A DNA stretch of 64,000 nucleotides from Cyanidioschyzon merolae (Eukaryota). A program made the position numbers and the translations under genes. Each line of letters starts with the position of its first letter. Position 1 is the first letter of the stretch. The stretch lies in the NCBI GenBank assembly GCA_000091205.1, contig AP006489.2; one strand, 5' to 3'. The notes under the pieces were generated by a model that did no database searches, had not been told where the DNA came from, and was given only the letters and a program-made list of their open reading frames with translations. Shown piece after piece: positions 1-56,566 of this stretch.

Positions 1-700
1 GGAGTATACAAAGCCGGGTGGGCTCTTCTGCGAATGAACTTGTATTGCCGGAAGCAGCGCGCATTCGCGAACTTTTTCAATGAGTTGAGCGCCCTGAAAG
101 AGGATGAAAGTCAGAGGCTTGTAATAGCGTACGGAGCAGGGCGCTGGATGACCCAAAAAGGTACTACACCAGCTCCAACGACAAGAACGTACAAAGAGTG
201 TGCACGGCGTTTTGTCACAGTACCTGTAGATGAGTTCCGAATATCGTATACACACCATGAACTGGGACGTACACTTCAAAGGGTCGAGATGGAAAAGTGC
301 CAGGGGAGTCCTGAAGACATAGCAAAGTACGGACCGCTGCCGGAGGTGCAAATGGAGAGGAGGACAAAAGTGCGAGGGCTACTCGCATTCGTAAGTACAA
401 CCAACGACGGCAAGAAACGTATGGAGTTTGTGAACCGAGACTTTAACGCCGGCATCAATATCAGGAGATGCGCGGTGATGGAGAAAAGGCCTCCACAGTA
501 GACAAGAGAGAATTTTAAAGGACAACTGCTCAAAGTGGAACTATATGAGAAACAATTGGAACCAGTCGTAAGTGGCCGATCCAAGAAGACGGGGAGGCGT
601 CTGCACGTCAGTTCGAGACTGCTTGTCTAGGGCGGGTTTATCGCCACCACTGTGCACCGCTGGCGGCGGTCGACTTTTGGAAGGTATTCGCTAGAGGTGC
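1..700 (+). mobile_element. TnpB/Fanzor-like element, copy A (3' portion; truncated by window start)
   Basis: ORF 34-501 is ~85% aa-identical to ORF 55723-56451. C-terminal motif KRMEFVNRDFNAGINIRRC matches the TnpB/Fanzor RuvC-III consensus (RDxNAAxNI). Nucleotide homology to copy C continues past the TAG at 502-504, through an in-frame tail ending ...RRLHV..LV near 633, into ~60-100 bp of conserved non-coding sequence. Confidence 0.55.
34..501 (+). CDS. TnpB/Fanzor-like nuclease C-terminal domain ORF (copy A); premature TAG relative to copies B/C
   Basis: Homologous ORF; degenerate zinc-finger region (TRTYKECARRF, second Cys of the CxxC lost) followed by the RuvC-III-like NRDFNAGINI. The stop at 502 replaces GAA TGG of copy C. 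Confidence 0.5.
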   Translation: MNLYCRKQRAFANFFNELSALKEDESQRLVIAYGAGRWMTQKGTTPAPTTRTYKECARRFVTVPVDEFRISYTHHELGRTLQRVEMEKCQGSPEDIAKYGPLPEVQMERRTKVRGLLAFVSTTNDGKKRMEFVNRDFNAGINIRRCAVMEKRPPQ

Positions 701-802
701 TGTTTATAGGGATCAAGTCTCTGAAGCGAGATGCTTTCACGACCTCTGCCGCTCCAGACGAGAGAAAAACAACGATAACTTCGGGGCCGGAGAAGTGTTG
801 AC

Positions 803-3157
803 ATGAAGGCGCTGCACGTGGCGGAGAAGCCTTCAGTTGCACGTCAAGCCGCAGCTGTGCTTGGACATGGTCGCGCGGAGCGAAAATGCAGCTGTTCTCC
901 ATATCACCCCAACTGGTTCTGGTCTGGTGTGTTCGAGTTCAGCGCCAAAGACGGGACGCGCTTCGTGGTCGACGAGCAGGTCTTTACATCTGTGAGCGGT
1001 CACGTCGAGGAGCTAGACTTCGTCACACCTTATCACAAGTGGAGTGCCTGCGAACCAGTGGACATATTTCGGCGGGACCTGGTGCAAACTCGCCGCTTTG
1101 TGCCGGAGAGGAACGCAAAGGTGGCGCAGAATCTGGGGCAACTGGCCCGTACGTGCCAGTACCTTGTGCTCTGGCTTGATGGCGACTCTGAAGGCGAGGC
1201 CATATCAGATGAGGTGCAGCGAATTTGTAAGCTGCCTCCTAGCATGGTGTTCCGTGCCCGTTTTTCGGCAGTAACGCCCAGGGACCTTTTCCGAGCCTGC
1301 GCTACGCTTGACCGGGTGAATGCGAAAGTTGTCGAGGCCGTATGGATTCGTCAGGAAATCGACTTGCGTGCTGGGGCCGCATTCACCAGGTGGCTAACGC
1401 GGCACATACAGCGCCATTACCCACAAGCGCTCATTTGCACATCTGCAATTGTCGCCTCGCGGCGTAAGGGTGCCTCTGGAACTTCCAACTTAGGGCGGAA
1501 CGAACGCCTGCAGGGGAGCGGTGTTTCTTCTGCTGACGCTGCTGTGGTGAGCTACGGACCCTGTCAGTTTCCGACACTCGGCCTTGTCGTGGATCGCTAC
1601 CGCGAGCGGCGCGAATTTCAAACGAAGCCCTTCTGGACGATTCGCATGCGTATTCAGACGACTGGCGATCGAGCCAGCGGGAATCAAGTCGAGCTTTGCT
1701 GGGACCGGGCACGCATCTTCGACCGCTTTATTGCATATGTCCTTTTTCAGAGGCTCCACGATGCGGTACGGTTGCCAGGCGCCTTACGCATGATCGCTTG
1801 TGAGAAGCAACCAGCTCACCGAAGTAGACCGTTGCCGTTATCGACGGTAGAGCTCCAGAAAGAAGCCTCCAGAAAACTCAAGCTATCTTCAGCGCAGACT
1901 ATGGAAATAGCCGAGCAACTCTATCAACAGGGCTATATATCTTACCCCCGAACGGAGACGGATCGATTCCCAACAGACGATCGTGGTATATCGAACCTCA
2001 AAGCACTCATTACCCTGCAATCTGAAGACCAGAGATGGTCATTGCTAGCAAAGCGGCTGCTCGAAACCGACGACGTATCACGTGGTGGGTTCAAAGCACC
2101 GCGCGCGGGCAGCCATGATGACCACGCGCATCCGCCTATTCATCCTACCAGCGCTGCACCGCCCGGCACCCTGAGCGGCGATGCCGCCCGACTCTATGAG
2201 TATATCGCTCGCAGATTCCTGGCTTCATGCTCTGCGGATGCCAGTGGCGAACGCACCATCTGGCGTTTCGCCGTCTTTTCGGGTGCATCGGAGGCGCGTA
2301 CTGAAGCACCACAGGAGACGTGCATGTTTCCCGCGAACACGGTCTTAGAGACATTCACGAGCAAGGGTCTTCGTATCACGAATCTGGGCTATTTGGAAGT
2401 TTTTTCTCCATATGAGAAGTGGTTGGAAAGCACTTTGCCAGGCGATTTGGAATGCGGTGCTGCGGCTCCAGAGCATTTTTGGCTGACGGAGCTGCGTCTT
2501 GAGGAATCGATAACAGAGCCCCCCGCGCTGCTCTCTGAGGCGGATCTCATCGCTGCTATGGATCGCCACGGCATCGGCACCGACGCGACGATTGCAGAGC
2601 ACATTAAGAAAATCCAGGAACGTCATTATGTGGTGAAACAAATCATAGCGGAGGAGCGGCGCCGCCAGTCTCATCGAGCCGGAACACAGGTGCACGATGC
2701 CGCCGCGAACAGCAGCGACGAGTGCGATGCCTCACAAGTGACGTCTCGGGCACACTCTGCGACGAGAACGCGGGAACGTTGTGGGCTCGTCTCAAGGAGC
2801 AGCGTACAGCGTTTCGTGCCTATGAAACTGGGCCAAGCTCTCGTCGAAGCATTTGAAAGCTGTCACGTGCATTTAGCGCGCCCCAACCTTCGTGCTGAGC
2901 AGGAAAGGCGCCAAAAACTTGTCGCCAAAGGAGAAGCCTCTGGGTCAGAGGCACTGGATGAACTCCTAACGTCTTTTGCGGAAGCGTTCCGACGCCTCGT
3001 GCTCGAACGCAGCAAGTTTGATGCGACGTTCTGCAAGTTCTTTCCGAAAGCAGAGCCTCCTTCGCTTTTGCGTGCTCCTGCCGCTCTAGAACTCACTCAG
3101 AGCAGCGTAAGACGTTCTTGTGTTGTGCCCACGGACGAATCGAATGCGAACGAATAA
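803..3157 (+). CDS. TOP3: DNA topoisomerase III (type IA)
   Basis: 784-aa ORF, ATG at 803. N-terminal TOPRIM-like MKALHVAEKPSVARQAA..GH, then the type-IA active-site motif QQGYISYPRTETDRF. Confidence 0.85.
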   Translation: MKALHVAEKPSVARQAAAVLGHGRAERKCSCSPYHPNWFWSGVFEFSAKDGTRFVVDEQVFTSVSGHVEELDFVTPYHKWSACEPVDIFRRDLVQTRRFVPERNAKVAQNLGQLARTCQYLVLWLDGDSEGEAISDEVQRICKLPPSMVFRARFSAVTPRDLFRACATLDRVNAKVVEAVWIRQEIDLRAGAAFTRWLTRHIQRHYPQALICTSAIVASRRKGASGTSNLGRNERLQGSGVSSADAAVVSYGPCQFPTLGLVVDRYRERREFQTKPFWTIRMRIQTTGDRASGNQVELCWDRARIFDRFIAYVLFQRLHDAVRLPGALRMIACEKQPAHRSRPLPLSTVELQKEASRKLKLSSAQTMEIAEQLYQQGYISYPRTETDRFPTDDRGISNLKALITLQSEDQRWSLLAKRLLETDDVSRGGFKAPRAGSHDDHAHPPIHPTSAAPPGTLSGDAARLYEYIARRFLASCSADASGERTIWRFAVFSGASEARTEAPQETCMFPANTVLETFTSKGLRITNLGYLEVFSPYEKWLESTLPGDLECGAAAPEHFWLTELRLEESITEPPALLSEADLIAAMDRHGIGTDATIAEHIKKIQERHYVVKQIIAEERRRQSHRAGTQVHDAAANSSDECDASQVTSRAHSATRTRERCGLVSRSSVQRFVPMKLGQALVEAFESCHVHLARPNLRAEQERRQKLVAKGEASGSEALDELLTSFAEAFRRLVLERSKFDATFCKFFPKAEPPSLLRAPAALELTQSSVRRSCVVPTDESNANE

Positions 3158-3908
3158 GACATATTTGAGCGCAACATGATGCACAGGCATCGCTGGATTC
3201 AACAGTACCGCGACTCTGGTTCCTGTGGGCATGTGTCGCTCAGGTTGGTGCCGCCCATGCGAACGATCTGCTGAGACACTTCAGCACTGATTCTCACTCT
3301 TGCATCCATCGCTCGCTGCAGCGTCGCCTTTTGCGAAGCTTCAAGTCGCCCAAGGCGACGCATTCTGAGCAATGCTTCCGAGTCGTTTTCGGCATCTGCG
3401 CTAATCATACTTGCGACGGTCTTTACGAAGGCTGTAAAGGTCATATACCGCAGCTAAAACATGATCTCTGGAGTTTCGGTCATGTACTCGAAGGGAACAA
3501 TTTAATGCCGGCCCCGCGAGGGATTCACTGCGACGTACGAGGATTCTATCGTGCTCTCAACTGAAAAAATCTTTCGAATGTGAGAAATCGCATCCTCCGT
3601 TCTCACAAAAGCACCAGCGATATTCATGTCGAGCCAGAGTATCACTGTTCCAGGCTTGATCGCAAGAGAGAGGCGTAGTTGGGTACCAGTCAGGTCAGTT
3701 CAACGCCAACCGATGCCGTCGTAGCCTTCCAACGTCACCTCCACTTCTCAAGAACTTCAGAGAAAACTCTCATTCATAACCGACTCAGAACGGGATGCCC
3801 GAAATGCGACGACGCAAGTGTCTCCGTCGACACACGCACTCGATGACAGCTGCCTTAAGTTTCGAGGACCGGCGTTCGCAGTCCCACCGCGATGCGCCCA
3901 GCGACTCC

Positions 3909-22799: not shown

Positions 22800-23720
22800 T
22801 CAAAAGGCGAGCTCGAAACTCATGACCAACTACCTCCGCACTACGGTGAGGATGCTCTTCCGATGCAAATCAGCAGCAGTTTCTTATTCGAAGAGTTTTA
22901 GTCTAGGCTGCAGATTTGAACGGAACAGCCAGTGACCTGTTAGCGCTCTCAGCAGCACCCTGTATTCAACGCTACAACGCCGCTATGATTGCGCGATGCA
23001 AAGAACGAACCAAAGCACTTCAATGTGATCGTGCTCATGAAAAAATGCTTTGGCAGGGCGCCCTGCATCGGAACAGAAATCATTCTTTCTCTTTAATATA
23101 TAAAAGCGAGGCATGAAGAGGGCAACTACCAAGGTTTCACATGACGACATTGATGCTTTGTAACATTGAATACATTATAGAAAAACTTCTGCGCTTTTCA
23201 CACCGTTTGACTGATGATAAAAACATAATACGAGATATCTTTCACCGAAGAAGCCTTTGCAGATAGAAAACTCGCAGATAAACAAAATCGGAAGCCGGGT
23301 AACGATACAGCAAGCAGTAATATTCACTGTGCAATAACCGAGATTTTAAAATCACTAGTCCTTCGACACAGATCCCGACGGACTAGGCGTGACGGACTCA
23401 CACATCTCTGAATTTGAGTGGAAATTCGATCTGAGCGACAATTCTACATCAGCGACAATGCCGTCAGGACTACCAAAACCCCTCGTAGGCAAACTCAACC
23501 GCAAGTTTGAATTCGACAAGGTCCGCGCAATTTACCACAGCATGCAAGCCATTAAGGAAAGCTGGGCATTTACAAAGCAGGTCGCTTGTGATTTAATGAT
23601 ATAGGATTAAAACAGACCATCAAAAAACTTTTGTTACGAAAGCGGTAGCCCACTGAAGAAGTGAGTTACATCAGGGTGCATCCCGCTCCTCAGCTCGCGC
23701 GCTCTCGACGCAGAACACAC

Positions 23721-26700
23721 TCAGAAATATCACAAAAAATAGAACACGATTACCCTTCACCAACGACCCAGGAAAACCATTCCTAGTGTATCCATATGCC
23801 TCTCCAGCTTTCCCGGACTCTGAACCATGCCATGCAAGTGCCCTGCTCCAGGCGGGATTTCAGCGCCGCCCCTCTTGGCCACTGAATTGGGTCTATCGCA
23901 AGTCCTCGCCATTTCAGCACGATGCCCACAACGGGCACTGCAATACTCCCACCAAAGCTCGCTCGACACAAGCTCGCTGTACGCTCCAGGACCAGCAAAC
24001 ATTTCGGGTTGTTGATTGGCCCGTCCGGCTCGGCGGAGAACGTGCTTCCGTGCACTGTTGCTGGCGATATCACACTATGACGAGCTTCTCACTTTCGATT
24101 GCCTCGCAATGCGACGTTCGGTCAGCTTGCCGCCCAAGATCTCGTGGCATCCGACTCTGTTTCAATCTCGCCTTCTCCAGATGCTGCAGCCTACGCCTTC
24201 GCACGTGATGGATCTATGCCGTCCAAAGCGCATCGATGTAAATCGTACTAATCGGTTCCTGCACGCGTTGTACGCTCCCGTCGAAGGAGAGGGAGAGCAG
24301 CCCGCACGCGCCCCAGCACCTCCAGCGCCATAGACTAACACAAAACCACGCGACTTGTCGGCCATTTACTTTTCTAACTCACTGAACTAGTATATTCTCA
24401 CGATTCCTGCATATACAAATCGGTAGATGTTGGCGACCCCAGCGCTGTTTCAAGTACCCGGCCAATGTTCGTTCGTATACGACATTTGGACACTCAGGCA
24501 CTCTCTGAATCAAGCGCACGGGGGATCCGTTTCTGGTCAATCCGGCGCGCAGAACGTCGGGATGGGCCCTGAAGCCGTCATTCCGCGTGCCGGTACGCCT
24601 CGTTGAGTCGACCATGCCCGGCTCGCGATAATGCCGAGCCCCGGAGAAGCTGAGTTGCTCCATCTGATTGCCGCACAGCTGTTTGCATGCGTCCTTTCAA
24701 TTTAGGGGCACGGCGGAAGCTACGGCGTTCTTCATACAGGGATCCACGCCCGCCACAAAGACTGTCCCGTAAGCTACCATGCACGATTGAGAACGAGTCT
24801 TGTTGCTCGGCTCAGCTCAGGGTTTCACAACGTGCATGCAGCCTGGTATCCCGTAGGTCTCCGTCGCCCCTGTAAAATTCTTTCCATTTCCTCCCCGTAA
24901 CGAAGCAACCCTGAGGGAGCTCCGGCAATGCTCCATACGAAGCTGATCGAAAGCTTCGTAATTACCGGAAGAGAGGAGGCATAGCTCGCCGCGGAAACTA
25001 TCTAGTATGAAACGAATATGCCTACGGTAACATGGCAGGCCTTGATATGAAATATGGGAGTACTTCGAACGGACGCTTGAGGAGTCTTAGGCGCTCGCAC
25101 ACAGTGAGGGAGTTTGCGTTGCTATGGAGGGCTTCCTCGAAGAAAGCGCAGTAGCTCGTATGCAAGGAAGCTAGGCATCACATTTCAACCATCCCCTCTA
25201 TGGGTCGTGCGTCGGTCCGACCCCGCGAGCAATACGATGAGCCTGCGCCCCCACAGTCGGCTCTCGCGATCGTTGCGTTTTCCCTTCTGCGCTTGCTACG
25301 AACTCCATCTCGTCCGCCCAGAGCAGCTCGCCTTTTAACTATAAAGATACCGCTAGAAACTCATCCATCAGTCCCCTCTTTCCTGGGTCAGTGAATTGAG
25401 GGTACATCGCCCACAGGGTGCGGTTCATGAAGCGCTCGAGAGTGGCCGCATATTTTCTTCGGTTTTTGACGATAGTTTGATACTTTTTGGCACAGCGCGG
25501 TAGCTTTCTTTCGTTGCCCACATACAGCGACGACGCGTCAAAGCATTCTGCGATTCATGTGTGTAGCCGCTCGTCCTACAATCAGGCCGTGCTGCATATT
25601 GCGTTCAGAGCATCAGTTGCGCGTCGTCGCGCGAAGTCTTCATCGAGGAACTCCAGAAGAACGTGGACACCATGGAGTCCTATGTCGGAACTTCCGCAGA
25701 CCGTTGCTTGACCAGGCGGCTCAAGACGAGAGAGGCTAGGCGCGCATTATTCGGGTAAGGAGCTTCTCGAGCCTTCACGACGTCCCGGATTTCGCGTTTT
25801 GGAAGAGCCTCCCCGTTGAAGTGTGTTTGTCGGGAGACCTTGGCAACGGTTTCAGACTGATATTTCCGCTCCGACAGCTTTCCTTCCTGTACCACTTCGT
25901 CCCGTTTTCTGAAGGCTCTTCCGCTTCCTTGTCTGGTGGTCCCTCGCCCTTCTCCTTGACTTGGCGCGGCGGCAGAACTGTTGCCGCTATATTCCATATC
26001 CAGGTTTTTCGTCGGGATTCAGACAAACTAGGTGGATTCTAGCACTGCCATTCGCCCGCTCGATGGATCTATGTATCTAATTCGCTCCGAGTACACTTTC
26101 GTCAGTGCTTCCGTGGCAAGCACAAGCATGAGCCGAGGCGCACCTCCTCGCTCGCTCACACGAACCGCAAGAGATGCAACAAAGCAGTTCATGGCGAAGA
26201 AAACAAAGAGGGACTTGTCGAACAACGATCTCATGGGCGCGAGCCACTTCTCTATTGATCCGTGAGCGTAAGAATGGAATTTGGCACCGGAGAAGAAACA
26301 GTCGACTGGATTAAACCATGGAGAATGGGCTAGTGCGAAGAGCAGCTCCACGAAAATCACAGATGCGTACCCCTTGACCACCTTTGGGTTATGGAAATCG
26401 AGATCGTCTCAGAACAGGACAGAAAAATGTGGAAAGAAGGCACCACAAGTGCTTCGACGAAGAAAGAGCTTTTGAGTGATCCAGTCCATTTGGGGATATG
26501 TGGGCGATCGCACGACTGCATTTCCGCATGGGTTGGTGTTGTCGCCATTCTCGCTTGTCTCATTACTAGGAAGATGGTCCTCGCTGGGGGCGCGCTTTTT
26601 CGCTCGTCTATCCGAGTCTCTTCATAACCAACCGTATCAACGGCGCGTAAATTTCCCGTCCTGTGGCTTCATTGAAAGTTCTGCTCTGAACACATATGCA

Positions 26701-26981
26701 GCGGAAGGAATTGAGGAGAAAGTCGAGCAGATTAATTTCTATATCATCTGACTCGGGTGCACGGCGTTCAGGATAGGGGCTACGAGAAGGGTGGTTCATC
26801 CACCAGCTGACGGCAGGGCGACTTGCAGTATACATGTAGAGACATTTTGGCCAGCTTCCAGTACCACCACAAAGGCTATCCGCGAATTTTTTGCTCAGTT
26901 TAAGGGATACATCTTTGTGTTGAATTTCTGCGAAAAAATCAAAAAAATACAAAATGACGCGCTGGTGTAGGGGTGCAGGAT
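23721..26981. repeat. left arm of a 3261-bp inverted repeat (x maps to 56833-x)
   Basis: Every ORF in this arm has an identical-sequence partner on the opposite strand in 29852-33112. Nucleotide spot checks at 24301-24360 and at both boundaries are identical. Confidence 0.85.
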
Positions 26982-27538: not shown

Positions 27539-27949
27539 CAAGCGAGAACGATCACAAAATCAGCCTTAGTGTTCTGAAAATACAGATACTAACCATCAAA
27601 TAGAAATTCGATATCAATTTTCTTCCTACTTTACGGTAACCATTGAAAGGGGAAAGCATTTGCTTATTCTCAAAAGTTCGGTTTCCAGGCTGAAAGTCGC
27701 ACGAGCCTTCCGAGCCTGCCAAGCTTTCGCTCCACATGCCTCTTTATAGCCTGGTGCTCTAGCAAGGCTTGAACAGCTCGTCCGCTGTGCGGGATAGTCT
27801 GGGACTTCGCGTGCTCAGGCTGTGTCTGGGACTCGCTCTCGTCGCGATGCTACTCTGACACATTGCTTCGCGCTTTTGCTTGCAGTGCGCCTGTCTGCGC
27901 GGATTGCAGGCTCTCAGCAATATAATGAATCCCGATCCCGAGTCGGCGA

Positions 27950-28120
27950 AAAACGCAGCGAGCTTACGTCTTCGGTGGTACGGCAAAGCCGTCCTGTCTG
28001 CGTGCTGCATTCGCACCTGCGGGATAGGCGCTAATGCTGGTGCCCACGATAGACTCGGCGCAAGATAGAACGTTCGAAACGACCAGTATGTCCGAGGGGA
28101 AGGATGGGTAATAGAACTTG
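27950..28120. repeat. left arm of a diverged (~80%) inverted repeat inside the spacer
   Basis: Reverse complement aligns with 28383-28553 (for example ctggtcgtttcgaacg / ctggtcgtttcgtacg). Symmetry centre 28251.5, distinct from the large repeat's centre at 28416.5. Confidence 0.6.
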
Positions 28121-28382
28121 AAGATAAGATTACGCATGACTGACGCTTTCCCGAATGCCAATATCGACCCCGCAGTCTGGGATCCATGGTCTACACAAAC
28201 GCTCTCTCTGACAAAAATGCACATTTTCCGCGCTCACGGGTCGCGTGCGATACTCTTTCGAATTTTTTTCATTGACAAAACGTTTACTTAGGCCAGCGTT
28301 CTCCGATTATGCGCATTTTTCTTTTCTTACTTTTTGTGTCTTTTTCAGTGCGCGGTGAAGTATCCATCAAACGCCCTACCTC

Positions 28383-28553
28383 CAAGATACATTACCTATG
28401 CTTCATCTCGGATATTCTGGTCGTTTCGTACGCCCTATCGTGTGCCGAGCGTGCCGAAAGCGACAGCAGTAGCGCCTATAGCGCCAGTGCGGTCGCTGCA
28501 CGGAGACAGAACGGCGTTGCCGTACCGCAGAGGGCGTCGGCTCGAGGGATACT
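28383..28553. repeat. right arm of the diverged spacer inverted repeat
   Basis: See left arm. Overlapping ORFs 27759-28187 (-) and 28334-28684 (+) share WSFRT...DRTALPY peptides. Confidence 0.6.
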
Positions 28554-28598: not shown

Positions 28599-29660
28599 GT
28601 GATGTCGCTGACCTTGTTTCCAGAGGGTATACACCCACGGATTCCTGTGGAACCTCAGGACCTTGTATGCTTGCAGTGTCCTGAAGCTAACCTTGGCCGG
28701 TCGCTGCTTTATTCTCTTGCTGAACGGGCAGCCCTTTTCAGCTCGAACGGGTTGACGTACCACGTGTTCCTCATTGACGGCGACTGTCTCAGCGGCGTTG
28801 TCGGACAAGGCGAGTGTGCCAGAGAGGTACTATGGAAGACTTTGCTAGAAGCCAGAACAGAGGCGACTGTGGAGGAGCCTTTGGCCATAGATCGTGTTTC
28901 TATTGCAGTGTGCCACTCGTTTAAGGAAAGCCTTGCTTGTCTTCGAGGCATTCTGCATACTGTCGAGCAGTTGTCACGGGAATTTCCCGAAAACACGCGA
29001 ACGGTTCCTGAACGAAAGCTTTCACTTCGGACTACTGTATCGCCATTTCCGCATCATGTAAAAGCGAGTCAGAACTTCTCGCTTTTGTCGCTTCCGCATG
29101 AACGGCAAATTTCTCAGAACTTGGAAAGCTTTAATGAACCAAGCTCAACCTCTTTCAAAAGCTTTTCAGAGAGCGTTGCACTTACCGACAATTGCATAGT
29201 GAAAACACCGAGCACGCTGCCAGTATCGAATGTTCCTAGCCATGAATACGTGTTGATTCTTGTTGATGGTATCGGGAATTCTTCGGGTATGCTTGGAAGC
29301 GAATATTACAACACCTGCATCATTGATCTCAGAGAAGAGCTTCGTGATATTTTACGTCAGCTGCTCGCCAGTGCGTACGTTTCAATTGTTTTTCGCGATT
29401 CTCTTATGGGTACGAAAACTGAGAGCATTGCACGCGAGATTCCAATCGAGACAAGCGGGGCTGATGGAACGATAGAAAAAATGCTGCGCAATCTCCTGAC
29501 GAAATCAGTGTTGGTCGAACATTCTTCGATGCCGAACGAAACGTATAGATTATGCTTTCGACAATTCCATCCGTCTGGATCACTCCAGCTTGAGTGGGAA
29601 AGTTTTTTAGGCGAGCCTCTCCATCCCGCTTTTAAATGGCTTCGAAGCAAAGCAGCGTAA
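28599..29660 (+). CDS. hypothetical protein (353 aa) unique to the spacer between the large inverted-repeat arms
   Basis: Long ATG-initiated ORF with no recognisable domain. Confidence 0.35.
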   Translation: MMSLTLFPEGIHPRIPVEPQDLVCLQCPEANLGRSLLYSLAERAALFSSNGLTYHVFLIDGDCLSGVVGQGECAREVLWKTLLEARTEATVEEPLAIDRVSIAVCHSFKESLACLRGILHTVEQLSREFPENTRTVPERKLSLRTTVSPFPHHVKASQNFSLLSLPHERQISQNLESFNEPSSTSFKSFSESVALTDNCIVKTPSTLPVSNVPSHEYVLILVDGIGNSSGMLGSEYYNTCIIDLREELRDILRQLLASAYVSIVFRDSLMGTKTESIAREIPIETSGADGTIEKMLRNLLTKSVLVEHSSMPNETYRLCFRQFHPSGSLQLEWESFLGEPLHPAFKWLRSKAA

Positions 29661-29851: not shown

Positions 29852-32800
29852 ATCCTGCACCCCTACACCAGCGCGTCATTTTGTATTTTTTTGATTTTTT
29901 CGCAGAAATTCAACACAAAGATGTATCCCTTAAACTGAGCAAAAAATTCGCGGATAGCCTTTGTGGTGGTACTGGAAGCTGGCCAAAATGTCTCTACATG
30001 TATACTGCAAGTCGCCCTGCCGTCAGCTGGTGGATGAACCACCCTTCTCGTAGCCCCTATCCTGAACGCCGTGCACCCGAGTCAGATGATATAGAAATTA
30101 ATCTGCTCGACTTTCTCCTCAATTCCTTCCGCTGCATATGTGTTCAGAGCAGAACTTTCAATGAAGCCACAGGACGGGAAATTTACGCGCCGTTGATACG
30201 GTTGGTTATGAAGAGACTCGGATAGACGAGCGAAAAAGCGCGCCCCCAGCGAGGACCATCTTCCTAGTAATGAGACAAGCGAGAATGGCGACAACACCAA
30301 CCCATGCGGAAATGCAGTCGTGCGATCGCCCACATATCCCCAAATGGACTGGATCACTCAAAAGCTCTTTCTTCGTCGAAGCACTTGTGGTGCCTTCTTT
30401 CCACATTTTTCTGTCCTGTTCTGAGACGATCTCGATTTCCATAACCCAAAGGTGGTCAAGGGGTACGCATCTGTGATTTTCGTGGAGCTGCTCTTCGCAC
30501 TAGCCCATTCTCCATGGTTTAATCCAGTCGACTGTTTCTTCTCCGGTGCCAAATTCCATTCTTACGCTCACGGATCAATAGAGAAGTGGCTCGCGCCCAT
30601 GAGATCGTTGTTCGACAAGTCCCTCTTTGTTTTCTTCGCCATGAACTGCTTTGTTGCATCTCTTGCGGTTCGTGTGAGCGAGCGAGGAGGTGCGCCTCGG
30701 CTCATGCTTGTGCTTGCCACGGAAGCACTGACGAAAGTGTACTCGGAGCGAATTAGATACATAGATCCATCGAGCGGGCGAATGGCAGTGCTAGAATCCA
30801 CCTAGTTTGTCTGAATCCCGACGAAAAACCTGGATATGGAATATAGCGGCAACAGTTCTGCCGCCGCGCCAAGTCAAGGAGAAGGGCGAGGGACCACCAG
30901 ACAAGGAAGCGGAAGAGCCTTCAGAAAACGGGACGAAGTGGTACAGGAAGGAAAGCTGTCGGAGCGGAAATATCAGTCTGAAACCGTTGCCAAGGTCTCC
31001 CGACAAACACACTTCAACGGGGAGGCTCTTCCAAAACGCGAAATCCGGGACGTCGTGAAGGCTCGAGAAGCTCCTTACCCGAATAATGCGCGCCTAGCCT
31101 CTCTCGTCTTGAGCCGCCTGGTCAAGCAACGGTCTGCGGAAGTTCCGACATAGGACTCCATGGTGTCCACGTTCTTCTGGAGTTCCTCGATGAAGACTTC
31201 GCGCGACGACGCGCAACTGATGCTCTGAACGCAATATGCAGCACGGCCTGATTGTAGGACGAGCGGCTACACACATGAATCGCAGAATGCTTTGACGCGT
31301 CGTCGCTGTATGTGGGCAACGAAAGAAAGCTACCGCGCTGTGCCAAAAAGTATCAAACTATCGTCAAAAACCGAAGAAAATATGCGGCCACTCTCGAGCG
31401 CTTCATGAACCGCACCCTGTGGGCGATGTACCCTCAATTCACTGACCCAGGAAAGAGGGGACTGATGGATGAGTTTCTAGCGGTATCTTTATAGTTAAAA
31501 GGCGAGCTGCTCTGGGCGGACGAGATGGAGTTCGTAGCAAGCGCAGAAGGGAAAACGCAACGATCGCGAGAGCCGACTGTGGGGGCGCAGGCTCATCGTA
31601 TTGCTCGCGGGGTCGGACCGACGCACGACCCATAGAGGGGATGGTTGAAATGTGATGCCTAGCTTCCTTGCATACGAGCTACTGCGCTTTCTTCGAGGAA
31701 GCCCTCCATAGCAACGCAAACTCCCTCACTGTGTGCGAGCGCCTAAGACTCCTCAAGCGTCCGTTCGAAGTACTCCCATATTTCATATCAAGGCCTGCCA
31801 TGTTACCGTAGGCATATTCGTTTCATACTAGATAGTTTCCGCGGCGAGCTATGCCTCCTCTCTTCCGGTAATTACGAAGCTTTCGATCAGCTTCGTATGG
31901 AGCATTGCCGGAGCTCCCTCAGGGTTGCTTCGTTACGGGGAGGAAATGGAAAGAATTTTACAGGGGCGACGGAGACCTACGGGATACCAGGCTGCATGCA
32001 CGTTGTGAAACCCTGAGCTGAGCCGAGCAACAAGACTCGTTCTCAATCGTGCATGGTAGCTTACGGGACAGTCTTTGTGGCGGGCGTGGATCCCTGTATG
32101 AAGAACGCCGTAGCTTCCGCCGTGCCCCTAAATTGAAAGGACGCATGCAAACAGCTGTGCGGCAATCAGATGGAGCAACTCAGCTTCTCCGGGGCTCGGC
32201 ATTATCGCGAGCCGGGCATGGTCGACTCAACGAGGCGTACCGGCACGCGGAATGACGGCTTCAGGGCCCATCCCGACGTTCTGCGCGCCGGATTGACCAG
32301 AAACGGATCCCCCGTGCGCTTGATTCAGAGAGTGCCTGAGTGTCCAAATGTCGTATACGAACGAACATTGGCCGGGTACTTGAAACAGCGCTGGGGTCGC
32401 CAACATCTACCGATTTGTATATGCAGGAATCGTGAGAATATACTAGTTCAGTGAGTTAGAAAAGTAAATGGCCGACAAGTCGCGTGGTTTTGTGTTAGTC
32501 TATGGCGCTGGAGGTGCTGGGGCGCGTGCGGGCTGCTCTCCCTCTCCTTCGACGGGAGCGTACAACGCGTGCAGGAACCGATTAGTACGATTTACATCGA
32601 TGCGCTTTGGACGGCATAGATCCATCACGTGCGAAGGCGTAGGCTGCAGCATCTGGAGAAGGCGAGATTGAAACAGAGTCGGATGCCACGAGATCTTGGG
32701 CGGCAAGCTGACCGAACGTCGCATTGCGAGGCAATCGAAAGTGAGAAGCTCGTCATAGTGTGATATCGCCAGCAACAGTGCACGGAAGCACGTTCTCCGC

Positions 32801-33112
32801 CGAGCCGGACGGGCCAATCAACAACCCGAAATGTTTGCTGGTCCTGGAGCGTACAGCGAGCTTGTGTCGAGCGAGCTTTGGTGGGAGTATTGCAGTGCCC
32901 GTTGTGGGCATCGTGCTGAAATGGCGAGGACTTGCGATAGACCCAATTCAGTGGCCAAGAGGGGCGGCGCTGAAATCCCGCCTGGAGCAGGGCACTTGCA
33001 TGGCATGGTTCAGAGTCCGGGAAAGCTGGAGAGGCATATGGATACACTAGGAATGGTTTTCCTGGGTCGTTGGTGAAGGGTAATCGTGTTCTATTTTTTG
33101 TGATATTTCTGA
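29852..33112. repeat. right arm of the 3261-bp inverted repeat
   Basis: Reverse complement of 23721-26981. Outer boundary tcagaaatatcac; inner boundary gggtgcaggat. Confidence 0.85.
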
Positions 33113-34618
33113 TTGTATTATATTTCAACCAGGCGCTTGCGACTCGACAACTTACATAATCCTTTCGGTTCCCTGATAATGATTTAGAAAAAAATTTTTT
33201 GAGCCTTTTTGCAGCCCAGAAGATCGAAAAAGTGCTGCGTGCTCCAATCCACGGGATTCGTCCGAGCCTGGCAGAAGCATTGAACGGTATGAAACTTGCT
33301 CGCTTATCAGTAAAAACTTCTATACGGTCTCTCTGGGTGTGAGGAATTTTTTCTTTTGTTCGTTAGTGTGATGCTTTGCATGGTGTTTCGCCTTCAGCAC
33401 TTGGGAAGTGAGCTATGGTCGGGAACAGCGTTCGCAGCATCAGAATGAAACCGCGAATTCATTTAGTAATATTCTCTGCCACGTAGCTGTTCGTCAGGCG
33501 TTGCGAAAATAGGTCACCGGTGGAATTTGTGAATGTTGCATTTTCCGAGATGATTTTAGTCGCCGAATACAGCAGCCACTTGAAGACCTCATGACCCAAG
33601 GGTGTTAGAATCGATATCTTCAAGCAAGAAATTTACGCGCATGGTTTTTGCAGCGACTCTGTCTGCGTTTACCTTCCTGGTCGGATATTCCCGCTGGGAC
33701 TCTATCTATCATGAAGTGGTGCCTCTTGCATATTCTCAAGCCAAAGGGAAGGGGAGCATGTGAATAGTGGTGGTGCTTGGAATATGTTCAAGATTTCATC
33801 AGGTATTTTCCAGTGAACCCAGGTCACAGGGCCCACTATCTCATTTGCATACGGCCAGTTATCCTGGAAACACTCCGCCGCAGTTTCAATTTACAGGGTC
33901 CATGATTTGATCTATAGACTGCGAAAGCTCTGTGGCAACTTAAGCGAAGCACAACAAAACTCGGGAACCTAGTTATCGCTTATCTAATGAATTGACCACG
34001 ACGCGTCGCATGGACATCAAAGTTTGTTGCCTTCTGCAAAATGGAGCACTTGCTAAAGAGCTCCTGCAGCAATTGATACTCGGAAAGGTGAACAAAAACG
34101 CTGTGCGCTCCGCGCATCATAACTCGAGTTGCTAGGAAATGCGCATCTCAGCTGTTTACAATAGCATCACCGTATAGTTCGCTGAATCTATATTTCACTC
34201 ATCTTGGGATGAGAACAGCAGCCCCTTTCCTCAATTGTCGAGAGGCTAGGTCGGCAGATGTCGCCTGACAATTTCAAAATTACATGGTCTCAGAAATGAA
34301 CTGATATACCTTCCAGCAGTGCAACAGAGCCTTATCGGAGACTTCAAATCAAAGCGCACGCACAAGTGTGAGCACCTCTGCTTGGGTGCTCAGCTCGACA
34401 GGGCACCTTTGCGGTAGAGAGAGACTCAGCGCTGGCTGCAGTAAGAGCGAAAGCGTTCGGGATATATTACAGAACAAGACCTTCGCCCGGGCCTTCCGAT
34501 TTATTGCAAAGAAGATGGTCATGTTTTCGGGCTTACAACCATGTGCTGATTTCATTTGCAATTCAAAATCGTTGCACATGAAGAAGAGAGGTAAATGCGT
34601 TCATAAAGTTGATATCCA

Positions 34619-42553: not shown

Positions 42554-43718
42554 ATATTTACATTTATGTATATTTCTTAGACTTCAGGACTGTCTGGCGA
42601 GCACCGTGGGGCGAAAACGCTGCACGCCCATGGGATAAATTGATATAGACGTGCAAACGCCTCCCGGCTGCCTTCGACCAGCACTCTGCAATGAGCTCCA
42701 GATTCTCCGTGTAAACCTCGAACCTGAGAGGCTGCTCTACAAAGTTAGATCGCGTCAGCTCTCATGATCTCGTCTTCAGCACTGGGCATATCCTAAAAAA
42801 GCTGGCAGCGTTAAAGTATCGGTTCAGGAACTGAAAGCGTTTGTTGCTTCTGGTGGTACGCACCAATGCATCGATTCCTCGAACTCGAGCGCTCTGTCCG
42901 AGTACAATCTCCTCTAGGCAGACTTTCGTTCTTCTTCCTCGTCTTCGTCACTTGCTCTTATTTGCTCGACGATCACCGAGAAGAGGCTTTTTTCCGTTTT
43001 TTCTATGGCACTCGGCTATAACCGCCGTCCAGGTTCCGCGATTTATAGGTCCATATCTTTCCCTTGGATTTTTCATTTCTTCAAATGAAAGAACTTCGGA
43101 GACGTCTGCTATGCACCGCGACAAAACAATTGATTAAACGCATCTCGGGGTGAAACACAATTGACGTAAAAGACTGCAAAATGCGTGAAAAACTGCCAGA
43201 GGATGCGAAATTGACGCTCGAACGCTGCCATCAGCGTCCTTTGAGAGGTGACTACAGAATTGGAAGGAAAGGGAAAACCGTCGTATTGAACGCGGGCGAT
43301 ACGCTAGCAGAAAAGGAAAGCATCAGAAAAATCCCGGAGAGGCTGATGTAGACTACAGAGGGAAGAGACCCAAACTTTAGTACTTGCCTAAGATATGTTG
43401 TTGGACCTGTTCTACATTATACTCACGTGGATGTAGAAAAGCCACGGAAATAGTGTTTATCTGTCGTGAGCAAGTGCGCCTCGGCCGTTTTGCTGTGCAG
43501 CGCAATGCTCGCAAGCTAAGAAGGTCGGGAGCACGCATTTACACGGTTGTACAAGAGTTATGTCGCATCCAGGGGCCTGAGCAGTGCACTACAACGGGCG
43601 AGTGGGCAACTTTTTCTGATGCCACAGCGCCGTAAGGTTCATAGAGCGCTTTGGTGCAAGACCTCTGCAGATGAAGCTCACAGCCGCGCATACGAGAGAT
43701 TTTCTTCAGTGCTGATCA

Positions 43719-48478: not shown

Positions 48479-48978
48479 ATGAAGCGCGCAGGACGTCATT
48501 TTCCTTCAGTCGATGAGACTTCCTTCGTACGAAACGGTCGATGCCTATATGGGTATTCGTGGAGAGGGAGCTCGATTTACGTACGATCGAGCTCGAAGAG
48601 AAAGAACTCAGCATCTGCTCAAGCTGCAGTGGACTATTCGGCGGCCTCCTTTTTGCTCGTAGGTATTGGCATGTAAGTCGAGGATCCTGGAGGCTCGTCA
48701 TCACCGGCTGAAGAAATAAAACGAAAAAATCCTCTTCTTGCCCACCGTCGCGCGAAGAAGTGCAAGCGGAGAAGAAGAAGAGTGGATATAGGCCGGAAAA
48801 TGCTTTTGCCTGTCAAGACGATGACGAGACTGTTTTGTTAGAGAGGGTGCGAGTTCTGAGAATCTTTGCACAGATGAGTTCATCCAGCGGCAATAAATGC
48901 AAGGTGTTCATGAACCGAGACCTAAACGCCGCCATCAATATCAGACAATGTGTGCTGCTGAAGACGAGACTCGAGTAG
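48479..48978 (+). pseudogene. diverged TnpB/Fanzor-like copy D (3' part). Exon-like blocks at 48479-48673 and ~48712-48978, with a putative intron starting at GTAAGT (48674).
   Basis: Frame 48712-48978 encodes ...REEVQAEKKKSGYRPE...RVRVLRIFAQMSSSSGNKCKVFMNRDLNAAINIRQC, which aligns with copy A (EMEKCQGSPE...KVRGLLAFVSTTNDGKKRMEFVNRDFNAGINIRRC). Upstream block MKRAGRHFPSVDETSF aligns with CARRFATIPVDEFRTSY of copy C. ORF 48760 starts with GTG, not ATG. Confidence 0.45.
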
Positions 48979-51900
48979 CTGGTGGAATCTAACTTTGTGC
49001 TCAAGCCTTTCAGGCTCGAAGAATTTAGGGAAAAACTAATGCTGGCAGAAAGCGTCCTGTCAAAAAAGCTGGGAAGCGCCAGTGGGTGAGTGTATATTCA
49101 CCCTACATGATCAGGGACATTTTCTGCATCACAAACAACGTATGTTGAAGCGGTCGGTATACTCAGAGCCATGATTTCTGGAACACCTTAACACACATGC
49201 TATGTTAGTTTTGCTTGTTTTCTCACGGCCGGTCGGCTCCAGGAATGTAGTCTTTCCATTAGAGAAAACCTGCGGAGAGAATTCGTGCTGTCTCTGCTAA
49301 CTTGGGCAAAATGGCTTACATCTACAAGTGAGTCACTCTACAGCCTCCAGACGAATTAACCACCCATATAGCAGTCCTTATCCTAAACAACGCTCGCCCA
49401 AAACAGATTGCATGAAACTCCTTCTGCACGACTCTCTCATAATCATTCCACCCCATCCCATATGATCTCCTAGCAATGCTACAAAAGCAGCCAAAAATGT
49501 GGAAGGTTTCAGTATCGTTGGTTCTATCGGAGTTGAACAGATTCGGAATGATAAACGGAAAGACGCGCTCAAAACGGAGAGCTTCGAGCTCCGAATAACA
49601 AGCACTACCGACTTTGTATTTAAACGCAAACAACAACTATAGTTGCCACGAATGTTCGTCTCCCTCGAAGAGAATTCATTCGCGAGAATAGTAATACTTC
49701 TATTTGGGTGCTCAGAGAGGGCAAACCTCTGTCTTTAACGCATCGACACGGGAGCATGACGAATATATCAACCAAAGCCGCAATGTGGTCGTGTGGTCAC
49801 CTACAGATCGCCAAACGGACATGATCGTTCAGTCCCTAGCCCTTCCTCGAGACACATTTCATGGCTTCTCTTTCGCACATTCTTGTCGTCTGCTCCGAGC
49901 CAATGTCGCTTTTCCTCATGTAACAGCTGTAAAGGAGTACCCAGCTCAGATCGACTTTGAGCTGCGTTTTATACGGACCTATTCTCCCCGGTCCGATCCA
50001 GACCATGCCGTCTTCTCTACTCTTAAATGCCATATCCATGCTCAAAAATGACAAGCGGACTCATTTGCATCCATGGAACCGATATATGAAGGACGCCGTC
50101 ATGCATCGTATGGCACCTCTTCGGTGGAAAGCTCGCTCAGCATCTGCTGCATTTACGCTCCGCGCCAGTCCTTCTTCGTCGGGGTTCTGGACGCAAAGCG
50201 TTTACGTGTCCACATTCGCCTGAAAATTTTTAATCAAAACTTCGATCGACAAATGATGCTCTAGACATAAGAGACAACACAACGAAGTAGTAGGATAAGG
50301 GCTTTGGATACATGCATCTTAGGATACTTAACACGTCGCCGCGCCAGGTCTGCGATCGGAATATCTACAGCGATGGTATCAAAACGTGGCAAACCACTCT
50401 CACATACCGAGACCGTATCCGCGTCGGTCTCGAGCTGTTCATGAAGCGCACCGTGTAGCCGTTCTAGCCTCACCTAGCAGGCCGAGACACGGAGGGATCA
50501 GCGGAAGGGATCCTTGTGTGTCGATAAAGGCAATCGACGTGCTGGTCCTGGCAGTGGAGGTCGAGATGGCAAGGTGTCGGAAGAGGATGTTGCACAGAGT
50601 GCGACAGTCGCATCCGATCGTCCGAGCTCACCGTGTTGTTCTCCACCACAGAAATATGCACGTCGTATTCAAAGAGTTTTCAGCACCTTGATGCACCCCC
50701 CTTTGCAACTTCCGGCCCGACGTTTTCCCCGAACAGAGCCTTCCGGAGCAGATCAGGTTCTCTTTCCGAATGCGAGCTATATCGCGTATCCAAGCTTCTA
50801 TTAGATAAGCCTCTCGTGTGTCAAATCAAGACTCGCCTTATCAGCGTAGACGCTTCCGCCCCGAGCGACATTCTCAGCGAAGTGTGGCTGGTTTCTGCGG
50901 GCAAGTGTGGAGAATACGAACACTTTCGCTAAGAGAATAGAGGGTTCGCTCATGTTTTCTGGTTTCCAGACGGGAATGGAGACAATACTAACACAAACAA
51001 TGTATACTTTCGGAATATCAAACTGCACGTACTTCGTGGGACCTATGTCTGAAACAGTCTGCGAGAATCTTTCTGACCCGTTCAGGATAATTGATGAGAA
51101 GAGTGGACAGTGTGTTTGCATCTCAGGCATAAGAGCACGAACGGCCTCACAGTACCTCTGAAGGAAGATAGCGAAGCCAAAGTTCTGAACGGATAGCAGA
51201 TAAAAGTTTCTGGCTGTTCCTGGGCTCGGGATCATAGAGTCTGTGGTGTTTCGGAGCGGAGGAGCCATACAACCAAAAGTAATGACAGCGTCAGGACCCA
51301 GCTCGACGCTCAAGAACACTGTATTGACCTGTGGAAGCCTTGCACGATTTATTCAGAGAGTAAACGATCGCTCAAGTTCCTAATGCGTACGATCCTTGAC
51401 AGAAATAAATAAAACAATGTTGGGGTCAACGTCCGCTTCCATTGCACCGACGGAGGAAGCGTCCATATACCCATTAGTTCAGTCAGTTTGAAAACGGAAA
51501 GAACCGAGAAGTCGCTTCATCTGGTGGTAGGCGATGGCGCTGAATATGCTCTGGTGCGCAAAGCCTGCATTCTGGCTCCTGAAACTAGAGCATTCAGTAA
51601 GTGCAGGAACCAAGTCTGTGCGATTCCCGTCGATTATAGAAGGATGACAAACACGCCTTACGAGCGAGATTGCATGCCGAAACTGGAAGGCGAGTTCAAC
51701 ATGAAACAGAGGCGTTTGTATACGATGGTCTACAGGAGGCTGATCGAACATCAGACTGCGAGGAAATCGAGAATGAGGAACCTGCTTTTTGATGATTCCA
51801 GCAGCAACAATGCGTACCAGCACATTCTGCAGCGAGCATTGATCGCCTAGATCATTTTCCGGAAATTTCTCCTGCTTCCCGGGCGTTCAGTGGCCTTGTA

Positions 51901-53498
51901 TCGAGCGAACTTTCGAACGATTCGATTAGTACTCAGAGTGAGCATTCCGCTGGAATGTGGAAGACATTAGATCAAGAAGTTCAATAGCAAGGAGAGTGGA
52001 AATTTGATGCTCGCCCATGTGAAGGCACAGGTATGGTACGGTACAACAATCTAGCCAGGCTTGGGCGCCAAGCACGAGCGACGGAAACGGCTTTTCCTAG
52101 CAATTGATAGAATATAATGGTGTTCTGTTCTTAAATAATACTGAATATTGCATAAACAAGTGCAAAAATATCGAACGCATGCATCTATGCAGCCATGGCA
52201 CACGATTCGCTGCGAGGCCGGCTGCGGTGCCTCTCGTGAATGGTAAAGGGTCGCTGAATGTAAACCAGGATCTGCAAGTCTTTTTGGTGCGCTTGATCGT
52301 CTAAACCACCGGGGGATCAGCAATTTCGAGAGCGATATCGGCTTCCGAGAAGGCGTCCATTTTTCTGTATCAAAACTCCAAAGTCTACCAGCTACCGCCT
52401 TAGCTTCTCATTCGAGACATTAGTCTGTTCGCGGCATCATCCGAGTACAAAGTCCTCCAAGAGCGTCCACTGTTACCGTCTACATGGCCGCGCTACCGAT
52501 CACGCCCGAAGAGAGGACTGCTTTGCCATACGCTTGTCGGCCTGGGGCTTAAGCTCTCGAATACGTCGTAATATTTTCCAGCAAGCTCACGTTGCAGTGC
52601 ACAGAGACCGCCTCGCATGAACCACTTTTGTACGTTGAATCGAGGGTCTTGACTAGTGTCGACCGTATTACAGCTGTTTGCGGATCATGGAATGTTACCT
52701 ATTTTGACCTCGAGGTGACTATTTGTGGCAACACCGGTGTCTAGGCATGCGGTAGCGCTCCTCGGGCCGTAGGACGCTTTTACCCTATCTTGTGTTTCGC
52801 TTCCATGTCCCATAATGTATAGGCAGAAGCGTTGAACGTTTCACACAGAATACGCAGCCATGCAACGTGTGAAAATTGGAGTCGACTCCTAAGCGTATTG
52901 CAGTAGCATGAAGAAACAACAGAAGCTCATGTTAGTTATCTCATTCGAGATAAAGACGGGTTACTGGATTTTGCAGTCATGTAGTTCGCGAAGAGGCTTC
53001 AGGATCCTTTTTAAAAGGGACAAGGCACATGCCTCGTCTTGAAATACTGGTTCATGTCCACAACGCGTTTGTCGGCCAACGACCATTTATTATGTGTTTG
53101 ATCCTCGAAGCGAAACCAATACTGGACTCTGCATAGTCAATGGCAAAGCATTCGCTCTAGTGTCAGATTTCGGTATGAGTAAATCTTTTGCTCCAGGGAC
53201 CGAAGATACGGTTCCGCACCACATCCCGATACGCTGGTGTAGTGGCCACCTTAAGGGACCACGTGCAATGGTGTGTCCATTGCAGACGTAAAACCTAGAA
53301 TCTCAGGGACTCGCTCGCGGAGCCGTGCTCCCGCAGTGCATCGTGCAATGTCATGTTGGTCGAAGACAGTATTTTCTGTCTCTCCAATGCTGCTCGAGAA
53401 ATGAAACCCATCCCTTCTTCGCATGAAGTGCATGTGTGTTGGGTTCTCAGTGAGGTAGGCATTCATCAAGAACCCCCAGCTGATCTAATAAGGAACAC

Positions 53499-54323: not shown

Positions 54324-54332
54324 GCACGGACA

Positions 54333-55310: not shown

Positions 55311-55356
55311 CACCAACGACAAAGTCCTTACCCTGCACCTCCTGCATCGCAGGATC

Positions 55357-55477
55357 CGCACTCTTCTCATCTACATGTTTCGCCTAGCCGTCTACAAGGT
55401 TGTACTTCTCCAACTCCTGCGTCGCAGGATCCGCATCCTTCTCATCTACATCCTTCGCCACGGGCGAAGCCGAGGAC
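55357..55477 (+). repeat. two 46-bp near-identical direct repeats (period 75 bp) at the centre of the palindrome loop
   Basis: ctcctgcatcgcaggatccgcactcttctcatctacatgtttcgcc (55357-55402) and ctcctgcgtcgcaggatccgcatccttctcatctacatccttcgcc (55432-55477). Confidence 0.8.
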
Positions 55478-55535
55478 GGACCAGGAGGCGGGCCCGACAG
55501 CGCTGGAGGTGCAGAAGAACGATTTCTCGTTGGCG

Positions 55536-56513: not shown

Positions 56514-56566
56514 GTTTTCGGGGTGTTTCCGGGCTCAACAAGAAACGCTCGTTCCCATTTAGATGC

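Follow-up and report, generated by a model that had tools for sequence, protein, structure and literature searches.

The window analysed here is a stretch of 64,000 nucleotides (nt) from Cyanidioschyzon merolae (contig AP006489.2), in which a preliminary description, made from the sequence alone, had recognised four loci (copies A to D) encoding homologous C-terminal domains with a RuvC-III motif of the TnpB/Fanzor type. Fanzor1 proteins occur in eukaryotes and descend from TnpB, the nuclease of IS200/IS605 and IS607 elements. The question raised by these loci is whether they belong to a Fanzor element and, if so, to which, and what state the copies are in. The repeated loci are almost certainly decayed copies of CMe-1A, a ~3.2-kb interspersed repeat of C. 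merolae with a single open reading frame (ORF) that encodes the Fanzor1 protein CMe-1.

Identity of the repeated loci

Fanzor1 and Fanzor2 were defined by Bao & Jurka 2013 (Mob DNA, PMC3627910), citations of which refer here to passages of the paper. In these passages CMe-1 is among the founding Fanzor1 examples, and CMe-1A is the one Fanzor1 family listed for C. merolae. CMe-1A is given with a consensus of 3169 bp, ~150 copies each ~80% identical to the consensus, no terminal inverted repeats (TIRs), target duplications that could not be determined, and an encoded protein, CMe-1, of 734 amino acids (aa); the family is remarked to have retained coding capacity over a long time. The same element had been on record at least since 2007 as an interspersed repeat of 3.2 kb without a name (Nozaki et al. 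2007, PMC1955436), counted there at 253 copies or ~5% of the genome and stated, with reference to earlier work, to be transcribed. A weak similarity links its ORF to WSV486 of the white spot syndrome virus (PMC1955436), and this virus is one of the Fanzor1 carriers listed in PMC3627910. The family is already known, and the window copies re-identify an element that was published as a Fanzor1 carrier in 2013.

Consensus DNA and protein of CMe-1A were taken from the supplementary files of PMC3627910 and mapped onto the window by blastn and tblastn, respectively. DNA identity to the consensus was 87% for copy A and 86% for each of copies B and C, with the 3' untranslated region (UTR) and terminal sequence included in the matches, and protein identity to CMe-1 was 85% for A (aa 529-734) and 82% for both B and C. 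The tblastn E values (B 9e-152, C 8e-144, A 3e-110, D 7e-11) exclude a chance origin of the four loci, whose homology, seen initially from their ORFs, is confirmed, as is their assignment to a multi-copy eukaryotic TnpB/Fanzor family. Nothing essential sets the window copies, which are truncated or deleted members, apart from the published entry; the two agree in lacking TIRs and in their divergence from the consensus (~80-87%).

TnpB is bacterial in origin and C. merolae lives among hot-spring prokaryotes, which leaves contamination or recent horizontal transfer of a bacterial TnpB to be considered. However, the copies lie between C. merolae nuclear genes on a 584,452-bp chromosome, and four window ORFs match C. 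merolae 10D proteins exactly (e.g. the TOP3 ORF at 803-3157, BAM79581.1). In sequence as in structure, the best matches are to Fanzor1 proteins of eukaryotes, and those to TnpB are far weaker (see below). Furthermore, the family is old in the C. merolae genome, because its 150-253 copies are only ~80% identical to the consensus. A bacterial source retains practically no probability and is refuted, and the earlier view that the loci are not bacterial contamination stands.

Active site and zinc finger

CMe-1 has a catalytic set consisting of D431 in RuvC-I (GADPG), an alternative Glu, E603 (DEFRTS), and D672 in RuvC-III (NRD), with Gly at the canonical RuvC-II position. Gly or Pro in place of the canonical RuvC-II Glu, together with an alternative conserved Glu downstream, is a hallmark of Fanzor proteins (Jiang 2023). 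Among 46 relatives, D431, G570 (AYGAG) and E603 are invariant and D672 is nearly so. Equivalents of G570 and E603 are present in copies A, B and C; the two residues are 33 aa apart, as compared with ~45 aa quoted in Jiang 2023. Synonymous changes make up most of the divergence from the consensus (dN/dS, the ratio of nonsynonymous to synonymous rates, is 0.14 for A and 0.29-0.30 for B and C), so the source lineages of these copies were under selection for the protein.

The motif consensus KRMxFVNRD[F/L]NA[A/G/P]INI[R/K] proposed initially is approximate: NRDxNA is found in all four copies, and the flanking residues depart from it in B, C and D (Table 1). A RuvC-I motif, which had been reported as not visible, is present upstream of ORFs B and C in another frame. 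An intron was rejected as the reason why RuvC-I and ORF C lie in different frames, since the consensus is collinear and the copies carry a 1-nt loss (2377) and a TGA at codon 466.

The zinc finger had been placed at T-x-T-x-K-E-C-A-R-R-F with one cysteine retained. Alignment with PpFz1 locates the site elsewhere, directly after DEFRTS, where 'DEFRTSSFCPKC' of PpFz1 is aligned with 'DEFRTSYTHHEL' of CMe-1 at the first CxxC; 'TSYTHHELGC...' of CMe-1 stands where 'TSSFCPKC' is expected. At the second cysteine pair, 'GLLRCKNMSC' of PpFz1 is aligned with 'GLLALVST' of CMe-1. CMe-1 has lost every cysteine of the CCCC finger, and at most one of the four is present in the wider clade of 600-700-aa relatives (46-sequence alignment). 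The CCCC finger is common to SpuFz1 and ISDra2 TnpB (Saito 2023). A partial Volvox VCa-2 sequence apparently also keeps at most one zinc-finger cysteine, and the D/E/D residues are conserved throughout the clade.

Profile and structural comparison with solved Fanzor1 proteins

A profile of CMe-1 and 45 relatives (profile A2) matched the solved Fanzor1 chains in PDB with E values of 3.8e-17 (PpFz1), 5.1e-10 (SpuFz1) and 8.6e-5 (GtFz1). The alignments run through TDGV, DPG, DEFRTS and NRD, and the homology extends over more than 600 residues.

An AlphaFold (AF2) model was obtained for the C-terminal 358 aa only of family member P0005, which is 75% identical to copy C, from an 86-sequence alignment. 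Its predicted local distance difference test score (pLDDT) was 84.8; it replaced an unusable earlier model (pLDDT 36) based on a shallow alignment of 22 sequences. In a Foldseek search with the P0005 model the top seven matches were Fanzor1 structures (SpuFz1 8e-11, PpFz1 1e-9, GtFz1 2e-6), followed by Cas12o (1e-5), ISDra2 TnpB (6e-5) and other Cas12 enzymes. The predicted fold agrees best with Fanzor1, in that a RuvC fold is accompanied by a helical insertion and, at the C-terminus, a NUC/TNB domain. Profile and structure, both of which had been named in the preliminary description as ways to check the assignment, bear it out.

The solved proteins SpuFz1 (8GKH), PpFz1 (9CF0) and GtFz1 (9CER) have the same domain order as CMe-1 (WED end TDGV, RuvC-I DPG, helical insertion, DEFRTS, NRD), and they share with the CMe-1 family the rearranged RuvC-II Glu and the fold (template modelling score, TM-score, normalised to the query 0.43-0.56). 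They differ in that sequence identity is only 10-20%, that a CCCC zinc finger forms part of the NUC/TNB domain in SpuFz1 and PpFz1 and all four of these cysteines are absent from CMe-1, and that the SpuFz1 element has 33-bp TIRs and TA duplications, whereas CMe-1A lacks TIRs. Binding of omega-RNA and cleavage have been demonstrated for the solved enzymes; for CMe-1 they are predicted. ISDra2 TnpB (8H1J, IS200/IS605) resembles CMe-1 in its RuvC fold, its D/E/D chemistry and its carriage by a mobile element without TIRs, and the 3'-end origin of TnpB omega-RNA would be a further likeness to CMe-1A. It is far more distant from the CMe-1 family (Foldseek TM-score 0.28 at the E value given above), and unlike CMe-1 it is smaller and has a canonical RuvC-II Glu, a zinc finger and a TnpA transposase partner.

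These comparisons bear on the possibility that the loci represent an unrelated host gene family in which an NRDxNAAxNI-like motif arose by coincidence. The missing zinc-finger cysteines and the lack of a Pfam match above threshold would suit such a family. However, such a family would not explain why sequence and fold are both homologous to solved Fanzor1 proteins for more than 600 residues, nor why a published transposable element consensus is matched with its non-coding ends included. The copies are also dispersed and carry stops, frameshifts, 5' truncations or internal deletions, like transposon relics. Coincidence is refuted by the consensus match, the profile match and the fold, and is left with a negligible probability.

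A 75-nt tandem repeat is situated just before RuvC-I (window 55333-55384 and 55408-55459, consensus 2117-2196). It encodes the acidic stretch K-D/H-E-E-K-K-E-A-D-P-A-T-Q-E-V-Q, is present in one to about five copies among elements, and falls in the low-confidence N-terminal part of the AlphaFold model (10-residue pLDDT blocks of 51-55).

Relatives and longer copies elsewhere

With the family profile, 1265 relatives, many of them 600-700 aa long, were detected at E<=1e-3 among 1.84 billion representative proteins from public genomes and metagenomes. At least 503 stretches encoding a relative were confirmed in JGI metagenome contigs, and 80 of these loci were fetched for comparison. Many of them cover consensus positions 1-3169, and ORFs of 722-747 aa with the N-terminal half occur in these loci, which derive from related strains. 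The 722-aa ORF of locus L079 aligns with CMe-1 residues 53-699 and has GADPG, DEFRT and NRDFN. The expectation that longer donors lie outside the window is thus borne out by near-full-length elements in related strains.

According to PMC3627910 the 5' 635 bp of CMe-1A are common to a second repeat, TE-N2_CMe. Of the metagenome copies among loci L006-L085, about one in two starts at consensus ~640-690 and lacks the TE-N2_CMe part. The published CMe-1A may therefore combine TE-N2_CMe with a shorter Fanzor1 unit.

Copies in the window and their state

The features located in the window are collected in Table 1. All four copies described initially are real; copy E, the older relics and the TE-N2_CMe-like pieces had been overlooked. 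The view that the copies comprise only the 3' ~240 codons is correct in that they are truncated 3' fragments, and fails in that their extents are wider and that B and C reach RuvC-I.

Table 1. Features of the CMe-1A family in the 64,000-nt window. Consensus positions refer to the CMe-1A consensus and residue numbers to the CMe-1 protein.
Feature	Position	Strand	Consensus or motif	Remark
Copy A, 3' part of CMe-1A	1-~688	+	2480-3167	blastn, tblastn; start lost at window edge
Copy A, blastn match	1-667	+	2480-3147	
Copy A, ORF	34-501	+	NRDxNA	
Copy A, canonical RuvC-II strand	118-141	+	LVIAYGAG	Gly in place of usual Glu; rearranged active site
Copy A, alternative RuvC-II Glu	220-267	+	VPVDEFRISYTHHELG	E603 equivalent, then site of first zinc-finger CxxC, lost here
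Copy A, RuvC-III	427-453	+	FVNRDFNAGINIRR (FVNRDFNAG)	Asp = D672; aligned with NRD of PpFz1 and SpuFz1
Copy A, premature TAG	499-501	+	codon 692	separates ORF from recognisable tail reaching 627
Copy A, 3' end to TOP3	688-803			gap
Old CMe-1-like relic	24087-25566	-	aa ~142-650	tblastn; many stops; in left arm of 3268-nt perfect inverted repeat
TE-N2_CMe-like piece	27582-28191	-	22-631	blastn, 74%; = 5' 635 bp of CMe-1A
Second TE-N2_CMe-like piece	28375-28550	+		blastn
Mirror copy of old relic	31267-32746	+		tblastn; in right arm
Copy E, internal-deletion derivative	42648-43175	-	789-972 joined to 2849-3012	architecture as in D
Copy E, blastn pieces	42987-43175, 42725-42885	-	789-972, 2849-3012	partial match
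Copy D, internal-deletion derivative	48675-49074	+	916-969 joined to ~2850-3090	keeps FMNRDLNAA
Copy D, blastn pieces	48675-48728, 48875-48970	+	916-969, 2872-2970	partial match
Copy D, ORF	48760-48978	+	NRDxNA	
Copy D, RuvC-III	48907-48933	+	FMNRDLNAAINIRQ (FMNRDLNAA)	KCKV in front, not KRMx
Decayed relic	51500-51913	+	aa 558-697	tblastn, 30% identity, E 1e-7
Copy B, 3' end to Sen15-like ORF	54323-54336			gap
Left arm of B/C inverted repeat	54333-55323			outer end within 3 nt of element 3' terminus
Copy B, 5'-truncated CMe-1A	54336-55486	-	2093-3169	two units of 75-nt acidic repeat
Copy B, blastn match	54336-55384	-	2120-3169	extra repeat unit 55394-55486
Copy B, ORF	54395-55123	-	NRDxNA	
Copy B, RuvC-III	54572-54598	-	FVNRDFNAPINKSR (FVNRDFNAP)	then INK: NAPINKSR
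Copy B, equivalent of VPVDEFRISYTHHELG region	54758-54805			matches residues 605-670 zone
Copy B, RuvC-I	55291-55314	-	GVDPWNTN	upstream of ORF B, another frame
Copy C, 5'-truncated CMe-1A	55483-56510	+	2140-3169	head to head with B
Right arm of B/C inverted repeat	55523-56513			arms 991 nt, 99% identical, 199 nt apart
Copy C, RuvC-I	55532-55555	+	GVDSGNTN	Asp = D431; frame other than ORF C
Copy C, ORF	55723-56451	+	NRDxNA	
Copy C, equivalent of VPVDEFRISYTHHELG region	56041-56088			matches residues 605-670 zone
Copy C, RuvC-III	56248-56274	+	FVNRDFNAPINKSR (FVNRDFNAP)	then INK: NAPINKSR
Copy C, 3' end to LRR protein	56510-56567			gap; LRR, leucine-rich repeat

No intact full-length Fanzor1 ORF was found in the window. 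Copy A, which ends ahead of the TOP3 start at 803, runs from Fanzor1 codon ~529 to codon 734 and on through the 3' UTR to the terminal hairpin. Besides the premature TAG, pairwise alignment shows the loss of 1 nt near window position 14 in this copy. Copies B and C are both broken off within the 75-nt acidic repeat and have in common a 1-nt deletion at consensus 2377 and the stop at codon 466; copy C has an additional 1-nt deletion at consensus 2180. Copy E has lost the RuvC-III Asp by mutation (FLNRYFNAA at 42804-42830). Since each copy is truncated, frameshifted, interrupted by a stop or internally deleted, none of them is able to make the nuclease.

Copies D and E have one common internal deletion by which the ORF start is joined to the last ~90 codons, and their mutual alignment crosses the junction. 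The sequences suggest that D and E belong to a subfamily of short, non-autonomous elements that was dispersed once the deletion had occurred.

Inverted repeats

Copies B and C form a head-to-head dimer, both outer ends of which lie within 3 nt of the element 3' terminus. The arms are 99% alike, yet each is only 86% like the consensus, and copy A is 82-83% identical to both (DNA). The centre of the dimer is in the repeat region near a short palindrome of the consensus repeat, CCTGCGACGCAGG, of which copy B has an imperfect version, CCTGCGATGCAGG; the two junctions, at consensus ~2093 and ~2140, lie to either side of the palindrome and not inside it. The pair probably arose in one event, in which synthesis from the 3' end would have changed to the other strand within the acidic repeats, either at the palindrome or close to it. 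A single strand switch would account for the 3'-terminal outer ends, the likeness of the arms and the position of the centre. An assembly artefact as the source of the B/C palindrome was rejected, as the independent metagenome contig L002 spans the centre.

A second inverted repeat has arms of 3268 nt (23714-26981 and 29852-33119) that are 100% identical and a spacer of 2870 nt. Because its arms are perfectly identical, this repeat is either recent or homogenised. Each arm holds a heavily decayed CMe-1-like relic pointing outward, in the same head-to-head topology as B/C but larger, and the spacer contains TE-N2_CMe-like pieces in both directions and an ORF (28599-29660) without a Pfam match.

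Element ends, a predicted omega-RNA and the probable mode of mobility

Two variants of the 3'-terminal sequence were seen, CGTTTTTC-TTTT-GAAAGGCG and CGTCGTTCGA-CTT-TCGAACGGCG, both of which fold as a terminal hairpin. An uninterrupted stem of at least 6 bp was present in 53% of 51 distinct 3' ends, as compared with 16% of shuffles, and one clear compensatory hairpin variant was found (CGTTCTA...TAGAACG).

At the other end, the 5' flank of full-length elements, viewed over the 40 nt upstream of consensus position 1, is T-rich, with for example TTTTC, TTCTTT or TTTTT directly before CGATGAC (...TTTTC|CGATGAC). This flank was seen in loci L012, L014, L017, L025, L039, L046, L063, L074 and others. 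It may reflect a target-site preference or be a candidate target-adjacent motif (TAM).

By homology, an omega-RNA would be expected from the 3' end of CMe-1A. On the model of characterised Fanzor1 and TnpB enzymes, an intact CMe-1 would bind an omega-RNA transcribed from this end, the DNA just past the 3' end would serve as guide, and double-stranded DNA would be cut beside a short TAM. In bacterial systems, cutting by TnpB favours retention and spread of the element.

As for mobility, CMe-1A probably moves by a one-ended, rolling-circle-like (Helitron2-like) process: TIRs are lacking, a T-rich site lies 5' of the element, the 3' end closes in a hairpin, and copies are often truncated at the 5' side but complete at the 3' side. 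A similar anatomy is described for the Helitron2-borne Chlamydomonas Fanzor1 families CRe-1/2/3, which have no TIRs, common 5' truncation, intact 3' ends and end hairpins, and whose carriers insert after TTTT without target duplication (PMC3627910). A T-rich 5' flank and a 3' hairpin are likewise present in CMe-1A. CMe-1A differs from the CRe carriers in having no recognised Helitron termini or Rep/helicase partner, neither of which was searched for, and the CRe proteins keep the CxxC...CxxC zinc finger, whereas CMe-1 does not.

Several observations weigh against the assignment of these loci to a Fanzor1 element with an omega-RNA and a nuclease. A search of PDB sequences with a single copy, or with profile A1 built from close relatives only, gave no match. 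Pfam gathering scores, to which the preliminary description had looked for support, were not reached: the best score to PF07282 (Cas12f1-like TNB, formerly OrfB_Zn_ribbon) was 18.8 bits against a cut-off of 26.3 (copy D, E 0.0018), that of the relative P0192 was 18.5 bits, and PF01385 (OrfB_IS605) had no match in window ORFs or longer relatives. RNAalifold, applied to 51 aligned 3' ends (last 280 nt), in which the tail variants are out of register, returned 3 pairs and no covariation, and no Rfam match was obtained for the whole window at gathering scores or for the B/C region at E<=1. The transposition mechanism is inferred only, no transposase being associated with the element. Nuclease activity of CMe-1 is unreported in the literature, and the Chlamydomonas Fanzor CrFNuc-1 formed a ribonucleoprotein but gave no cleavage in vitro (Jiang 2023). 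Finally, the 'strictly conserved' C4 zinc finger in the motif of Bao & Jurka, D-X(125-275)-[TS][TS]-X-X-[C4 zinc finger]-X(5-50)-RD, as given in the passages cited, is absent from CMe-1, while the spacing D431...T605 S606...R671 D672 fits. The absence of C4 lowers membership by the strict motif and leaves the homology as it is.

Position relative to host genes

Copies A, B and C keep the full 3' end and terminal hairpin, and each faces the start of a host gene 13-115 nt away. Among 49 distinct metagenome insertion sites, 29 have a co-oriented next ORF (at least 250 aa) after the element 3' end and 13 an opposite one (binomial p 0.02), and 21 of the 29 co-oriented ORFs begin within 130 nt. Taking loci L001-L085 together with the window copies, the element 3' end is usually just upstream of a co-oriented host gene.

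Such a position invites the reading that the window copies are functional without a nuclease, either as promoter/5'-UTR modules or as omega-RNA-only 'ghost' loci that would guide a Fanzor1 made by intact copies elsewhere. The intact 3' ends next to gene starts and the orientation bias speak for it, as do the transcription of the elements (PMC1955436) and the mention of ghost loci for the Fanzor of S. punctatus (Saito 2023). However, no conserved RNA structure or covariation was found by RNAalifold in the 51 ends, and the bias in position could equally be explained by a preference for T-rich targets in promoters together with selection against other insertions in a very compact genome. A function of this kind is unlikely. 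Equally doubtful is a broader proposal, in which CMe-1 would belong to a zinc-finger-less Fanzor1 clade of red and green algae under purifying selection, insertion or retention would be almost exclusively upstream of co-oriented genes, and the 3' ends would be working promoter/5'-UTR modules or omega-RNA-only loci guiding a Fanzor1 from the few intact copies.

Significance

A Fanzor/TnpB relic was recognisable in this window from the RuvC-III motif alone, without tools. The B/C dimer, the D/E deletion subfamily, the loss of the zinc-finger cysteines and the position upstream of host genes have no mention in the passages of PMC3627910 cited here. C. merolae grows at ~45 °C and pH 1.5, the conditions of acidic hot-spring algae (PMC1955436). 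If confirmed, the zinc-finger loss and the position just upstream of host genes would be new details on the life of an element in a very compact genome. Because its host grows under such hot and acidic conditions and C. merolae is genetically tractable, an intact CMe-1 would be a candidate heat-tolerant Fanzor1, of modest practical value.

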